In this document: positions 1 to 14,142 of the stretch, piece after piece
Numbering within the stretch: position 1 is the first letter of the stretch
Layout: every line of letters begins with the position of its first letter
Source: Vermamoeba vermiformis
Lineage: Eukaryota
Length of the DNA stretch: 64,000 nucleotides
Direction: 5' to 3'
Assembly (NCBI GenBank): GCA_045837725.1
Contig: JBEWZL010000235.1
Span: forward strand, 186,001-250,000
Made by a program: the position numbers and the translations under genes
The notes under the pieces: generated by a model
The model's input: the letters and a program-made list of their open reading frames with translations, nothing else
Database searches by the model: none
What the model was told of the DNA's origin: nothing

Positions 1-407
1 TCGCGCTATTATTCGCACTCGTAGTCTCTTCTACTGACTCTTTGAGCTTGGCCCAGTGTTGTTCTGTGATCTGATAGGCGCCAGTAAATAATAATATTCA
101 TATTATTGTAGTCAATGCACAATTATTGTAATGGATGAGGTGCGCATTAAAATCAAATGGCGTGAATTAATTGATAAATATCTTTGTCAATAAAATTTGT
201 AATTACCTCGGTGCCTTTAATATACTCCAATACAAATTTGAGCAGTTTGATAAAAGTCGCTTGATCAGTATTCGGCAATGAGAGTGCTAATTGTGTCACT
301 TCGCTGGGGGCTTTGGTGCCGAAGAAAGTGGATTGCGTTGCTGCTACCGAATCTCGCGCAACAAAACTGCGACCGAGGGCTTGTCGTTTAGAAGGATTGA
401 ACGTCAT
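1..407 (-). CDS. COMMD5: COMM domain-containing protein 5 (5' part; runs off the window start)
   Basis: Exon 1 (407-207) has TFFGTKAPSEVTQLALSLPNTDQATFIKLLKFVLEYIKG, resembling the COMMD5 N-terminus (SFLGAQLPPEV...DRSTFRKLLKFVV). GT donor at 206; exon 2 resumes at 70 (ITEQHWAKLKE). Confidence 0.75.
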
Positions 408-10408: not shown

Positions 10409-12098
10409 TTATTTCCTGTCCCCGAGATATTTGTTCAACAGCTGCTGCACGGCTTCACCTTGCGACGAGTGTTGTTGTGCCGTGCTGCCGGTGCGATTGA
10501 ACAGCGCTTGTTCGAGGTCGTGCGCCACGTCACTGGTGTTCTTGTTCTGCTGCTCGAATCTGTCTTTCACTGCATTGAACAGAATGGGATTGACTGCTGG
10601 GCCAGTGTTCGGCATGGCACGCTGCACCTCTGCAATCACGTGACGCATGTGTTGCAGCACTGGATGATCACGTGCTGGATATTGTTTGCTGAGCACTTCA
10701 AAGGCGTTGGTCAACAGGTAGTGGCACTCGGTGTACTTTTGTGTGCGCAGCTTGTACATGCCGAGGTCCCACTGAATGAGTGCCACGTGAAAGTGGTCGT
10801 GTCCGAGCGCGGCTTGTTTGATCTGCAGTGCTGTCATCTGCGGCTATTATTAGCACCACATCGCAATTGGAACACTGCTGCTACTCACACTGTGCTTCAC
10901 GGCCTCATCTTCTTGCTGCGTGGCGTGGTAGTGCAGTCCCATGTGATGCAGTACTGTCGCATGCGCCACGTGCTTCTCACCTGTCACTCGATCAGATCGC
11001 GTGATTGCTAATTATTGAGCACCACTCACCGCGCCGTTTGAGTGAGAGCTCAGCAGCCCTGTGCAGTGCATCGAGTGCCTGCGTGTTGAGATCGAGTTGT
11101 CGCGCCACCACTGCCTCGCTCAGGTACAGCGGCACCAGTGTCACGTGATCGGCGCCGCAGTGCTCAATGTGTTCGTGAATGGAGTGCTGCACCTCTTCGA
11201 GTGTGTCAAACACGCCGTGGCGCTCAGTTCTCGTTGGCTTGTTGAAGCGTTGCATCATGTAGTGCAAAGTGCTGCTCTGTTGCGGATGGTCCCACGGGAG
11301 CGGATCTTGTCCATTGTTCCGCTGCAAGGTCTGCAAGTGCCACTGCTTCGCCTCACGATAATTGCCGCGGTGCTCGTAGAACAGAGCAATGTCCGCACTC
11401 ATCGCAGAGGTCAAGCCGCGCTTGGATGGATCGAGCAGTGTCCAGCCTTGCCAATCACGCGCTGCTTCTAGCAACAGCTCGTGTGCTTCTGCAGCGCGTC
11501 CTAATATGACGTATAGTCGTCCTAGTTCGTGCTGCAACACCGTGCGCAGTTCGCTGACGAGTTTGCTATCGTACAATGGTGCCTCGGATTCATCGCTGAA
11601 CAAGTTCGGTTCTGGTGTGGGTGTCGCGAGTGAATCTATCAGCTGCAAGGCCTCTTTGTACACCGATTCACACTGCGCGTACAGACCACGACTGCACAAC
11701 AATGAAGCGAGGCGATGCAGCGCGGTCAGTTTGGGCATGACGCGGTCCCAGCTGTCACTTGCTTCGCGCCACAGCTGTGTAGCACGCACCCAGTCTCTGT
11801 TGGTCCACGCGAGCTCTGCTTGTCGCTCTAAGTACACCGTGTCTTGCTTGGAGAGCTACTGCAAGCGTTACAAAAATACTACAATATTAATTAATTAAAA
11901 TATTAATACCAGTTCAAACACTTTTTTGTCTTTCGGCTCCAAGCCTCGAGCATAATGTCGAATTGACGTGTGGTTATGGCTGAATATTTTTTTAACACTT
12001 TTCAGGGCCGATCGCTGAGTCCAAACGAGATTGGAAGCGGATCCAGTCCCTCTCTGTGCAGACTTAATGAATCGCACTAACAGCGATCTGCTCCACAT
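10409..12098 (-). CDS. TPR-repeat protein with probable mitochondrial presequence
   Basis: R/S-rich acid-free N-terminus; kinesin-light-chain-like TPR units (LASLLCSRGLYAQCESVYKEALQ, LGRLYVILGRAAEA, LGHDHFHVA). Confidence 0.7.
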
Positions 12099-12271
12099 GT
12101 GTGTGTTGCGTTACGGTTAAAACAACAAATGCCCTCAATGCAACACACGTGACCACGTGGCCAGACGAGGAATTCTCAAACAAAAGTGAAGTTCGTTCAA
12201 AAGTTGGCAGTCATCATTTTGATCAGAGAGGTAACACCACACTAGGCACATCTGATATTAGCTCTGCTGCA

Positions 12272-13167
12272 ATGCAAATCTTCTTTCCATTCGCGTGTGC
12301 GCTGACGTCCTTGCGTTGTCTCGACAGCAAACGTCTAGGCAAACAACGCCTCGAGGGTAAGAAAACTATGTAAACGTCTCAAATACACCACATCGCATTA
12401 CTAGCATATTGTGGGTGCAGTAGTCGATAATAATCAATTTCTTGGCAAGTCAATTAATGCTGAGAATTTCTTCGAACTACAGCCTTTCAAGTCTGGACCA
12501 TTGTCAGTGGCAAGGAGCCCAACAGCAAGTGGAGACATCACCCTATTATCAAGATGTGGAGCGGCTACGAAGGTACGTGCGCTGGAGACGTGTTGCACTG
12601 GTTACTAATCGGATCGCAGTTGCCTTGCGCGACTACATCATCAAGTCCGTCGAGGTGTTTGGTGAGCGCAAGACTAAGGACGGCAAGCGCTTCTTCGACA
12701 ATACGCGCATGTTGCAGTACATTGAGGAGTACGACATGCGTCTCAAGCCTGAGGAGAAGATCGTGTACCCAGACTTCATCGGCAATGCGACCTTCCACGA
12801 CAGTCACAAGGCCATGCTGTATCATAAGGGTCGCGAAGCAGTGCGCGTGATGGCACTCAAGGGTAAGACGATTGACAACGTGTACGAACAGTTTGCCAGC
12901 TACAGCCACATCACGAGCTATTACTGGCCCGTAGAGCTGAAGACTACCAAGGTACAGTATAATATATTTATGTTGTAATTTGTGGCTTACTTGGTGCAGA
13001 TGTTAACCGCAGAACAACCCTCGAAAAATAAATCCGAGAAGAGAAAGCGCGAGGGCGATGAAGAGGCCCCTAAGAGAGCTCGACGCAAGTTGAATAGCGA
13101 CACTATAGTACTAGATAGTGCTGATGTTGTTATGAAGGCCTCTGTTAGTGCACAGCGTGTCAAATAA
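12272..13167 (+). CDS. MSMEG_6728-like / pyrimidine-dimer DNA glycosylase (T4 endonuclease V superfamily) with C-terminal NLS, 4 exons
   Basis: Spliced product: MQIFFPF..LDSKRLGKQRLE|AFQVW..KWRHHPIIKMWSGYE|VALRDY..PDFIGNATFHDSHKAMLYHK..YYWP. This matches the recalled family pattern MQTFLP..LD.KRLGKQR.E..W..HPA..MW.GYE..P.WLG...H.SH..L..K..Y.WP. Confidence 0.8.
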
Positions 13168-13262: not shown

Positions 13263-14142
13263 ATGAACTTTACCGAGAATAAGCGCGAGATTATTGCCAA
13301 GGGCAAGTGGATGACAATGAAAGAAATTCACTACACAGATCCGAAGAACACTGCACGAGTAGGCACTTACAATATTATTATTATTGTTATTATTGCTATC
13401 ATACGATGCAGTGGCTGATAGTTCATATGATCTAGGTGTGGGAAACAATAGAAAGAACGACCAAAGTGGGCGAATACGATGGTACTATGCCGTACATAAT
13501 AATCCATTGATATACTCGTGCTGACTATTATCAGCGGTGGAAATATTTGGGGTCGTGCGCAAACATGGCGAGGGAGATCAGCTCTTATTGGTGCTGCAAT
13601 ATCGTCCTCCAGTAGGAAAACTGGTAATTACATGACATATAGAGGGTATATTAGCGATGGTTGGGCTAATTATGTGCTGCAGACACTTGAACTGCCAGCT
13701 GGTCTGATAGATCAAGGCGAAACACCCGCTGAAGCAGCACTGCGCGAGTTAAAAGAAGAAACGTCAGTAGACTACGGTTGCAATTAATATGACTGACTGA
13801 CGGCGAATATTCAGAGGCTATGTCGGTCAAATCATCAAGATCTCACCGCCCTTGGTCATTGAGCCTGGCCTCACGAATGCTTCCTCTGGTCTCGTGCACG
13901 TGATGGTAGGACAATAGGCACTTGATAAATATACTACTCATCGTATTCGCTAGATTGACGCCGATCAGCCCGCGAATCAGCGGCCCAAACAAGAGCTGGA
14001 CGAGACTGAGTTCATTGAAGTGGTGCGCGTGCCACTCCACAATCTGCTCGCACATCTCACGCACCTCGCCACACAACGGCAGTGCTTGATCGATGCCAAG
14101 CTGTACACCCTTGCGCTGGGTCTGTCGTTCTCGTCGCAGTAA
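13263..14142 (+). CDS. NUDT5: ADP-ribose pyrophosphatase, Nudix hydrolase (NUDT5-like)
   Basis: VWETIERTT, QYRPPVGK and the Nudix box ELPAGLIDQGETPAEAALRELKEET|GY; C-terminal EFIEV and IDAKLY. Confidence 0.85.

Follow-up and report, generated by a model that had tools for sequence, protein, structure and literature searches.

A spliced nuclear gene for an MSMEG_6728-type protein with an NLS-like C-terminal tail in Vermamoeba vermiformis, a candidate damaged-base glycosylase

Introduction

Pyrimidine-dimer glycosylases of the T4 endonuclease V type (endoV; DenV, T4-pdg; PDB 1ENJ) are familiar from textbooks, where they are assigned to a phage, a few bacteria and the chloroviruses, and the chlorovirus PBCV-1 enzyme cv-pdg is closely similar to the T4 protein. 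In T4 endoV the nucleophile is the free alpha-amine of Thr2, which is exposed when the methionine is removed. Eukaryotic repair of UV damage, as it is usually taught, proceeds by nucleotide excision repair, photolyase or UVDE; the latter two have unrelated folds and chemistry, being based on direct reversal and on incision 5' of the lesion, respectively. UVDE is described in PMC5768739, where cv-pdg is also reported to have been given an engineered C-terminal nuclear localisation signal (NLS) because T4-pdg localised poorly to nuclei.

The MSMEG_6728-type proteins (NCBIfam NF038085) form a large family of 5,078 clusters at 50% identity, mostly of 130-190 aa. Our literature search found no tested activity for any member of this subfamily; in the papers retrieved MSMEG_6728 itself figures as a hypothetical gene of the SigF regulon and as a zinc-responsive gene, with nothing further. 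A cellular eukaryotic member was not described in any paper that this search returned. Here we describe such a gene in Vermamoeba vermiformis, within a stretch of 64,000 nucleotides which is referred to as the window.

Gene structure and expression

The original prediction placed four exons at 12272-13167 of the forward strand and had them splice into a full family member, and the gene structure was recovered at these coordinates (Table 1). The spliced coding sequence of 675 nt is open up to a single terminal stop and gives a product of 224 aa, a full-length MSMEG_6728-type domain followed by a basic C-terminal tail of 50 residues. The RNA check proposed with the prediction was positive, all three exon joints being present in transcript contigs of two public RNA runs (X6 and X15). 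Back to the preceding stop (ORF 12071..12373) there is no in-frame ATG upstream of 12272. Targeting to an organelle by an N-terminal transit peptide was considered and rejected, given this absence and the lack of any extension before the conserved Met1.

Table 1. Features of the gene and of its transcript in the window.
Feature	Position	Strand	Description
Minimum 5' UTR	12231..12271	+	X15 / X6 transcript contigs start at 12231 / 12233
Exon 1	12272..12356	+	residues 1-28 and first base of codon 29; family-conserved N-terminus MQ.F.P and RLGKQR.E motif
Glu28 codon	12353..12355	+	invariant family glutamate, candidate equivalent of T4 endoV Glu23
Intron 1	12357..12482	+	126 nt, GT..AG, phase 1; joint 12355/12482 (cut +1) in X6 and X15 contigs
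Exon 2	12483..12572	+	residues 29-58; W..HP...MW motif
Intron 2	12573..12619	+	47 nt, GT..AG, phase 1; joint in X6, and in X15 with one substituted letter
Exon 3	12620..12951	+	residues 59-169; remainder of catalytic domain (FHDSHK...L..K, Y.WP)
Clade-specific insertion (approximate)	12673..12696	+	about 7-8 residues after conserved Arg75, from family alignment A1
Intron 3	12952..12999	+	48 nt, GT..AG, phase 0; joint in X6 and X15
Exon 4	13000..13167	+	residues 170-224 and stop; C-terminal tail outside catalytic domain; X15 contig reaches 13151
Bipartite NLS-like segment	13039..13089	+	KRKR, 6-residue acidic spacer, PKRARRK

The gene had also been said to be hidden in the open reading frame track by motifs lying in different frames. 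It is indeed hidden, but not through four frames: the exons are spread over four ORFs bounded by stops, which use two reading frames. The lengths of introns 1 and 3 are divisible by 3, but both introns carry stops. Four database ORF calls (P0010-P0013) all diverge from the spliced protein exactly at intron 3, and one of them, P0011, also reads through intron 2 at the same place. Prokaryote-style ORF calling turns the gene into such read-through fragments, which have no Pfam match, and the eukaryotic distribution of the gene is therefore probably under-counted.

Raw RNA reads with the same species label, 4 and 18 in number and 95-99% alike, cover exons 1-3 only. Fourteen of the 18 exonic differences in the aligned reads and contigs fall at third codon positions. 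Across all three junctions the spliced protein can be aligned gap-free with P0002 and with P0001, a transcript-derived homologue which is 69% identical over exon 3. A related metagenome contig from a second species (L162) carries an intact orthologous frame sharing all three intron positions, with introns 1 to 3 of 101, 41 and 47 nt, and has the NUDIX neighbour in synteny. The two proteins are identical at 167 of 223 residues; pN is 0.154, pS 0.727 and dN/dS about 0.07, with dS saturated. The gene is under purifying selection, and it is a real, expressed and spliced nuclear gene of a eukaryote.

Genomic context

The surrounding genes encode a PDK1-like kinase, an Ank-kinase, IDH, a dynamin-like protein, a CHD helicase and an intron-rich NUDIX protein. 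With eukaryotic neighbours on both flanks and spliceosomal introns removed in RNA, the gene is eukaryotic and intron-containing, as had been predicted. Its GC3 of 0.66 lies within the range of the neighbours (0.46-0.76). No tRNA genes are found within the 64-kb window. Contamination and a prokaryotic ORF were ruled out by the introns, the RNA joints and the synteny.

Viral contigs often carry the family: 342 of 389 and 586 of 600 pattern matches were confirmed in scans with the family profile, and the neighbour clusters in the protein atlas carry mostly Uroviricota labels. Both observations would suit a recently integrated viral fragment, derived from a giant virus or a phage, or else an assembly contaminant. 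Against this stand the three introns spliced out of the RNA, the eukaryotic genes on both sides, the host-like GC3, and the purifying selection on the gene, whose synteny and intron positions are the same in a second species. Furthermore, no viral contig holds a close relative of P0001: scanning the viral contigs with this protein alone confirmed none of 123 pattern matches, and in the profile scans the best viral identity was about 43%. A viral fragment or contaminant is thus already contradicted, and we consider it extremely improbable.

In a small sample of 12 viral contigs no giant-virus genes were seen in the flanks, and the association of the family with giant viruses that had been put forward gains no support from them. 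A sigma-70 gene lies next to the family gene in three of the 12, a sign of phage.

Family membership

A local family profile of 158 positions was made from 109 prokaryote/phage-type members, leaving out eukaryote-like sequences. The lack of a profile match of the spliced protein was to refute the original prediction, but a match was found: 130.5 bits in one alignment over profile positions 2-149. The ORF fragments reach at most 42 bits. As five shuffled versions of the spliced protein scored no more than 5.0 bits, the family match is not due to chance.

The Pfam and NCBIfam scores are those of exon pieces and homologues, not of the joined window protein. With Pfam Pyr_excise (PF03013, gathering cut-off 23 bits) exon 1 scores 16.2 bits (profile 1-26) and exon 2 14.5 bits (29-53), two colinear matches each below the cut-off and amounting to 30.7 bits when summed. 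Ten homologues are above it at 36.6-80.6 bits, including six members of the eukaryote-like clade of the window protein (36.6-56.9 bits). With NF038085 (curated cut-off 100 bits) the exon pieces score 26.2, 20.7 and 16.5 bits, again colinear, at profile positions 1-28, 39-56 and 59-133, the first of these, from exon 1, with an E value of 6.5e-6. Clade members fall on both sides of this cut-off, P0002 (100.7), P0004 (110.8) and P0006 (120.3) above it and P0001 (88.5), P0014 (73.5) and P0015 (79.6) below; the sister protein P0039 scores 122.7 bits. Exon 4 has no family match in the Pfam and NCBIfam profile search.

In the family alignment of 120 rows, 39 columns are kept in at least 85% of the rows. 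The window protein is identical at 34 of these, including all six invariant ones (exon 1, 14/16; exon 2, 6/6; exon 3, 14/17), and departs at five (T>I, L>F, W>F, G>K and W>F). The family motif set is present, with N-terminal MQ.FLP, RLGKQR.E, W.NHP...MW, FH.SH...L..K and Y.WP. An insertion after Arg75 is common to the eukaryote-like clade, P0039 and P0189, and is missing from the short prokaryote/phage forms. By sequence comparison the window protein belongs to the Pyr_excise / MSMEG_6728-type family, in agreement with the predicted assignment: the exon matches are colinear, homologues exceed the Pfam cut-off and some of them the NCBIfam one, and the local profile matches the whole domain.

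Predicted fold

AlphaFold models were available for two homologues of the window protein, P0001 (pLDDT 86) and P0039 (pLDDT 93.4). Out of 48,161 chains, T4 endoV (1enj_A) was the first match of both: for P0001 at Z 8.3 (rmsd 4.0, 114 residues aligned, model 1..145 to 1enj_A 2..138; next match Z 5.2) and for P0039 at Z 8.7 (rmsd 3.8, 107 aligned; next Z 5.1), where a VIA Z of 8-9 is the range in which the tool warns of a common helical arrangement. The relatives of the window protein are thus predicted to have the T4 endoV fold, and the T4-endoV likeness originally proposed found its counterpart in these two models. Foldseek gave nothing in the PDB at E<=0.001 for either model.

Sequence methods connect the two groups less directly. 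The family profile (A1) matched no T4 endoV chain among PDB sequences at E<=1; its sole match there, a CHCH-domain protein at E 0.12, is at chance level and was discarded. By hhalign a second family alignment (A2) was aligned with T4 DenV over 23 columns (E 0.027, probability 1.8%); greedier and global settings gave unreliable N-terminal alignments, which were left out. T4 DenV itself matches Pyr_excise with 53.3 bits and has no NF038085 match at E<=1.

Active site

A glutamate at position 28 is found in 120 of 120 family rows. Residues 1-28 of the window protein align with Pyr_excise profile positions 1-26, and residues 1-27 of T4 DenV, which begins MTR and has YRELPR at 21-26 with its Glu at 23, align with positions 1-30. 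Since both glutamates fall near profile position 26, Glu28 is, as an approximate assignment, the candidate counterpart of the catalytic Glu23 of T4.

The N-terminus differs. T4 endoV uses residue Thr2 after removal of Met, and the window protein starts with Met-Gln, as Gln occupies position 2 here and in 115 of 120 family rows; the segment before the glutamate is also about 5 residues longer than in T4 endoV. Met is expected to be retained before Gln, and the T4 mechanism with its free amine of Thr2 cannot be transferred literally to the window protein. In eukaryotes Met-Gln N-termini are typical NatB acetylation substrates, and acetylation would block an alpha-amine nucleophile. The extreme N-terminus of the family is strongly conserved, in 113-119 of 120 rows, and may nevertheless have a role. 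K24 and K128 are invariant lysines in the family alignment.

C-terminal tail

The original prediction described the last exon as adding a bipartite NLS-like KRKR-x7-PKRARRK. The tail and its bipartite character stand, and the spacer is of six residues, not seven. The window tail matches the regular expression of a classical bipartite signal, in which two basic residues are followed by a spacer of 10-12 and then by at least three basic residues in five. A K[KR]x[KR] motif is present in the tails of 19/19 clade sequences and in 9/163 others. Both basic clusters are kept in the second species (L162), with a different spacer that is one codon shorter. A nuclear localisation signal is suggested by motif match. 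A signal at the C-terminus rather than the N-terminus would suit a family that conserves its extreme N-terminus, which in T4 endoV takes part in catalysis.

Proposed function

We somewhat favour the reading that this real, spliced nuclear gene is of foreign origin and encodes a damaged-base glycosylase which is imported into the nucleus by its tail and works by Glu28. As a classical bipartite nuclear localisation signal, the tail would take the protein into the nucleus, where the helical core would bind damaged duplex DNA via the conserved basic residues R21, K24, R26 and K128. The N-glycosyl bond of the damaged base would be cut with the help of invariant Glu28, with the conserved N-terminus or a conserved lysine as the nucleophile, and the abasic site or nick left behind would pass to the host base-excision machinery. 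By family analogy the most likely substrate would be the cyclobutane pyrimidine dimer.

The same fold might instead serve another function: the protein could act on some other lesion or modified base, be an AP lyase only, or be a non-catalytic DNA or chromatin binder whose tail contacts DNA and not importin. In its favour are the uncharacterised state of the MSMEG_6728 subfamily in the literature found, the low identity to T4 endoV in the structural alignments, the different N-terminal architecture, the failure of T4 DenV to match NF038085, and the invariant K24 and K128, which could serve as alternative nucleophiles. The invariant glutamate together with the conserved extreme N-terminus argues for a T4-type active site, and the low dN/dS likewise speaks against this alternative. 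So do some of the prokaryotic neighbours, which are DNA-repair genes: among 80 loci RNase HII is found beside the family gene in six, and XPB, a Y-family polymerase and SprT in one each. We regard another function as possible, though on the unlikely side.

A bolder version of the glycosylase reading, which we hold to be rather doubtful, takes the protein as a prokaryote- or phage-derived enzyme of T4 endoV fold that has been recruited for base excision in the nucleus, with UV dimers or some other lesion as its substrate and a nucleophile other than the alpha-amine. The nucleophile would be a different one because Met-Gln N-termini are normally acetylated in eukaryotes, and the import signal would sit at the C-terminus since the N-terminus is part of the active site. 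If true, the clade, and perhaps the whole MSMEG_6728 family with its more than 5,000 clusters, would form a mechanistically distinct branch of the fold.

Origin and distribution

In a search of 5.8 billion proteins, 12 full-length clusters of the window clade and four read-through fragments stand out. The clade together with P0039 and P0189 is held by SH-aLRT values of 99-100 on a stem of 0.92 and is placed inside prokaryote/phage diversity, in a tree which is unrooted and whose nearest relatives are unlabelled. Profile scans of viral and genome contigs for a donor, limited by back-translated patterns, gave nothing above about 44% identity, and the 18 matching cultured phage records are all at 42% or less.

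Some eukaryote-looking members lie outside the clade, namely P0266, a EukProt gene model, and P0131 and P0152, which have NLS-like tails. They could be taken as remnants of an ancestral eukaryotic gene inherited vertically with massive loss, and an AU test of all eukaryote-looking sequences as one clade with the window group did not reject this arrangement (p 0.184, for a grouping picked after the first trees were seen). In the free trees, however, these three proteins are apart from the window clade, among DPANN and viral sequences, and the 12 clusters of the clade face thousands of prokaryote/phage clusters. To our knowledge the family is absent from well-studied eukaryotes. Vertical inheritance appears improbable to us.

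The ancient horizontal acquisition originally proposed is plausible, from a prokaryote or phage, in view of a rare clade on a long stem within prokaryote/phage diversity; the unrooted tree and the lack of a donor above about 44% identity weigh on the other side. The direction of transfer is read from the rarity of the clade rather than from a rooted tree. The word "ancient" plausibly applies as well, in keeping with a host-like GC3, with the gain of introns and with intron positions common to two species despite saturated dS. Most likely the gene passed into an ancestor of this eukaryotic lineage, and it would then have gained its introns, the short insertion and the C-terminal tail.

Comparison with known systems

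With the MSMEG_6728-family proteins of bacteria, archaea and phages the window protein shares a colinear full-length match and most conserved residues. The prokaryote/phage forms are intronless and mostly without a tail of at least 20 residues, and the window clade differs from them by its long stem, its own insertion and its C-terminal tail. Should the favoured function be right, this would be a clean example of the domestication of a foreign gene, in which introns were gained, the composition was adjusted and a targeting signal was put at the end left free by a catalytic N-terminus. It also points to a large and widespread family whose chemistry may differ from that of T4 endoV.

With T4 endoV itself the family shares the Pfam family Pyr_excise, a structural match that spans nearly the whole domain from the N-termini of both proteins, and, by hhalign, a corresponding helix ending in an R-G-[FY] motif. 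On the other hand, the structural alignments with the clade models are only 11-13% identical, the family profile and the T4 sequence do not match, and the window gene is nuclear, with introns, the extra insertion and the NLS-like tail.

Photolyases and the UVDE of S. pombe resemble the proposed enzyme as extra UV-damage routes beside nucleotide excision repair, provided that the substrate is the one suggested; a nucleus-directed cellular member would then add a repair route to eukaryotes. The chlorovirus enzyme cv-pdg is alike in that it belongs to the T4-endoV superfamily and acts inside a eukaryotic cell, and its engineered form cv-pdg-NLS (PMC5768739) carries the NLS at the C-terminus, where the natural window gene has its NLS-like segment. 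The NLS-tagged enzymes that were engineered to prevent skin cancer would thereby have a natural counterpart in the window protein. Nonetheless cv-pdg and the window protein are distinct, cv-pdg being viral, T4-type and artificially tagged, and the window protein being of the MSMEG_6728-type branch and encoded by a cellular gene.

Gene structure and transcript evidence

The predicted four-exon spliced gene is confirmed by an open frame, homologous proteins, RNA joints and an orthologue, and since these and the database ORF calls agree we consider the gene to be real. Its three introns of 126, 47 and 48 nt all have GT..AG borders, the G+C content of introns 1 and 3 is below that of the exons, and the joined exons give a 675-nt frame with a single terminal stop, encoding 224 amino acids. 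No in-frame ATG was found upstream of 12272 within the same ORF. The ORF list gives only fragments because the exons occupy two reading frames and four stop-delimited ORFs; the claim that the ORF track hides the protein was thus borne out. The gene is single-copy within the 64-kb window, its GC3 of 0.66 lies inside the range of the neighbouring genes (0.46-0.76), and the flanking genes are eukaryotic (PDK1-like kinase, Ank-kinase, IDH, TPR protein, NUDIX, dynamin-like protein, CHD helicase and actin-related protein). The 145 amino acid stop-to-stop ORF antisense to exon 3 is regarded as a coding-strand shadow.

Coordinates of the gene and of neighbouring features (window positions)
Feature	Position	Strand	Remark
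Whole gene	12272-13167	+	four exons
Exon 1	12272-12356	+	spliced model
Exon 2	12483-12572	+	spliced model
Exon 3	12620-12951	+	spliced model
Exon 4	13000-13167	+	spliced model
3' end of intron 1	about 12453-12482		nearly identical in the orthologue
Antisense ORF	12565-13002	-	145 aa, stop to stop
NUDIX hydrolase gene	13263 to about 14160	+	intron-rich
NUDIX exon	13677-13787	+	Pfam NUDIX match

P0001, a 243 amino acid transcript-derived protein from a eukaryote collection, and the JGI protein P0002 align without gaps across all three junctions. All three predicted splice joints are present in assembled contigs from two public sequencing runs. For X6, presumed to be RNA, record 5 covers exons 1-3 and record 7 exons 3-4, and an unspliced piece across intron 1 is also found; for X15, an RNA-Seq library, records 1 and 3 together carry all three joints with exact GT..AG borders, one joint having a substituted letter. 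Raw RNA reads with the same species label are sparse (4 in run X21, 18 in run X23), 95-99% alike and restricted to exons 1-3; they probably come from a different strain and give weak support. By our own count over the aligned reads and contigs, third codon positions hold 14 of 18 exonic differences.

The orthologue, on metagenome contig L162, has an exon identity of about 79%, an uninterrupted frame of 221 amino acids and the same downstream NUDIX gene; its three introns (101, 41 and 47 nt, GT..AG) sit where those of the window gene do. The two proteins are identical at 167 of 223 aligned residues; pN is 0.154 and pS 0.727, with a dN/dS of about 0.07 that is only a rough ratio because dS is saturated. 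At the 3' end of intron 1 roughly 30 nt are nearly identical in the two sequences and the rest of this intron has diverged with indels (70 of 126 columns identical overall, 25 gap columns); the conserved end may be under constraint as branch site and acceptor, or may contain some other embedded element.

Four fragments among the database ORF calls (P0010-P0013) read through introns, break at the positions of intron 2 and intron 3 and have no Pfam match. The intron positions are therefore common to several relatives, and the gene is hidden from ORF calling. P0010-P0013 and P0033-P0036 represent the gene type in public collections solely as prokaryote-style ORF calls running across introns 2 and 3, and two of these fragments are located on contigs of about 450 kb. 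As such calls read through the introns and carry no Pfam annotation, eukaryotic occurrences are likely under-counted.

Family membership

Membership of the MSMEG_6728/Pyr_excise family, as originally predicted, is well supported. Taken as separate exon pieces, the sequence has colinear matches to the NCBIfam model NF038085 (MSMEG_6728_fam) at profile positions 1-28, 39-56 and 59-133 (26.2, 20.7 and 16.5 bits) and to Pfam Pyr_excise at 1-26 and 29-53 (16.2 and 14.5 bits); exon 4 has no match in the Pfam or NCBIfam libraries. Against a local profile of the 109 rows of the family alignment lying outside the eukaryote-like clade (the window protein and its close tail-bearing relatives), the spliced protein scores 130.5 bits in one alignment (residues 1-170, profile 2-149 of 158). 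The ORF fragments score 36.0, 27.1, 42.4 and -1.9 bits, and five shuffles at most 5.0 bits. The protein retains 34 of the 39 columns conserved at 85% or more in the 120 family rows, distributed over exons 1-3, and all six invariant residues (R21, L22, Q25, E28, L125 and K128). Full-length clade members exceed the Pfam Pyr_excise cut-off of 23 bits (36.6-56.9 bits) and fall on both sides of the NF038085 cut-off of 100 (73.5-120.3 bits).

Distribution and origin

The family comprises 5,078 clusters at 50% identity (E<=0.001; 3,750 at E<=1e-10), mostly of proteins of 130-190 amino acids. When a profile of the clade was compared with 5.8 billion proteins, the best 8,000 word-sharing candidates included 12 full-length clusters at 226-335 bits, followed by four read-through fragments at 156-164 bits and a drop to 153 bits or less. 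In a scan with one peptide pattern, relatives from labelled genomes reached at most 44% identity and belonged mainly to DPANN archaea (Woese-, Pace- and Nanoarchaeota), CPR bacteria, Chloroflexota, Synergistales, Methanothrix and some Asgard archaea. Relatives on viral contigs reach 43% identity, and 18 cultured phage records have a family match (42% or less); P0001 as sole query found no viral relatives.

The 12 eukaryote-like rows form one side of a branch in a FastTree tree of 218 rows (out of 297 after dereplication, representatives of 125-200 amino acids only), as do 13 such rows, with support 86, in an IQ-TREE tree of 98 rows, where a stem of 0.92 leads to the clade plus P0039 (SH-aLRT 99). 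A third tree of 99 rows, with two long-branch rows removed and P0266, P0189 and P0207 added, joins the clade, P0039 and P0189 with support 100. P0039 and P0189 have the clade's insertion after Arg75 and lack the tail. Eukaryote-looking members also occur outside the clade, namely P0131 and P0152, with NLS-like tails, and P0266, a EukProt gene model of 253 amino acids that is extended by about 48 residues at the N-terminus and ends in a basic C-terminal tail. The P0266 extension is rich in Ser, Ala and Arg and precedes the conserved N-terminal motif, with Leu in place of Met1; the protein could be organelle-targeted, or its first exon mis-modelled. The free trees place all three away from the clade; an AU test of uniting them with it, a grouping picked after the trees were seen, did not reject it (p 0.184, lnL difference 41.6). 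On these unrooted trees, transfer from a prokaryote or phage to eukaryotes is plausible and is put forward as the most economical explanation.

Gene neighbourhood and function

No activity for the MSMEG_6728-type subfamily, and no cellular eukaryotic family member, is reported in the papers found, where MSMEG_6728 appears only as a hypothetical gene, SigF-dependent and zinc-responsive. Of the immediate neighbours at 80 prokaryote loci (148 ORFs scanned), most are unrelated housekeeping genes. RNase HII adjoins the family gene at 6 of the 80 loci, all from Woese- or Pacearchaeota (L082, L087, L088, L089, L095 and L102), which may reflect a conserved repair gene pair or just related genomes; XPB, a Y-family polymerase, a SprT-like protein and NUDIX occur at one locus each. 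These neighbours give mild support to a role in DNA repair.

The next gene downstream in the window encodes a NUDIX hydrolase; a NUDIX gene also adjoins the family gene in a Cyclobacteriaceae genome (L090), and nudE of T4 lies about 1.7 kb from denV. This recurrent proximity is probably a coincidence. On three viral contigs (L038, L069 and L076, of 326, 60 and 321 kb) the family gene is followed by a DUF6576 protein and then, at a distance of about 1 kb, by a sigma-70 family gene; this order, conserved in all three, suggests a phage gene block.

The C-terminal tail

The tail had been read as a bipartite NLS-like KRKR-x7-PKRARRK. It does fit the classical bipartite pattern, the spacing having been off by one: KRKR is followed by six mostly acidic residues and then PKRARRK. 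The post-domain extension contains K[KR]x[KR] in 19/19 sequences of the eukaryote-like clade, which are partly non-independent (11 representatives, 6 cluster members, the window protein and L162), versus 9/163 other family sequences scored, eight intron read-through fragments having been excluded before the count. Four of these nine (P0094, P0131/P0184 and P0152) themselves resemble eukaryotic tails. The L162 protein retains both basic clusters around an altered spacer one codon shorter, as expected if the two clusters form a bipartite signal. In the AlphaFold model of P0001 the tail is a long helix of lower confidence.

Relation to T4 endonuclease V

T4 endonuclease V (DenV, T4-pdg), as encoded in the T4 record, scores 53.3 bits against Pfam Pyr_excise and has no match to NF038085. 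The family profile found no T4 endonuclease V chain among PDB sequences at E<=1, and hhalign gave a single 23-column helix match (E 0.027, probability 1.8%). At the sequence level nothing beyond the shared Pfam model connects the two. Foldseek with the AlphaFold models of P0001 (pLDDT 86) and P0039 (pLDDT 93.4) found nothing in the PDB at E<=0.001. With VIA-align, run exhaustively over 48,161 chains, the T4 enzyme (1enj_A) ranked first for both models, with Z values near 8 that are not decisive for helical proteins: Z 8.3, rmsd 4.0 and 114 residues aligned for P0001 (model 1..145, chain 2..138; runner-up Z 5.2, on the tail helix), and Z 8.7, rmsd 3.8 and 107 residues for P0039 (runner-up Z 5.1). 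As both searches gave one and the same domain-wide match, ahead of all others by more than 3 Z and consistent with Pfam, a shared T4-like fold is likely.

On the Pyr_excise profile, positions 1-26 correspond to window residues 1-28 and positions 1-30 to T4 residues 1-27, so that Glu28 and T4 Glu23 (in YRELPR) nearly coincide. The N-termini differ: the T4 enzyme begins MTR, whereas the family begins Met-Gln (Gln in 115/120 rows) and carries some five extra residues ahead of the Glu. The nucleophile of T4 endonuclease V is the alpha-amine of Thr2, exposed by removal of Met, while Met-Gln N-termini retain Met and are typical NatB acetylation substrates in eukaryotes. The T4 mechanism therefore does not literally apply; the extreme N-terminus probably still matters, being one of the family's best-conserved stretches.

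Gene structure, family, fold and tail of the original prediction are thus supported, and the best-supported reading is a predicted nuclear DNA glycosylase with the T4 endonuclease V fold, which would act through Glu28; by analogy, its candidate substrate would be the cyclobutane pyrimidine dimer. The gene is a rare domesticated eukaryotic branch of a very large, uncharacterised relative of the T4 UV-repair enzyme. The chlorovirus enzyme was engineered with a nuclear localisation signal added at the C-terminus, since T4-pdg reached nuclei poorly (PMC5768739); in the window protein the putative signal occupies this position naturally.
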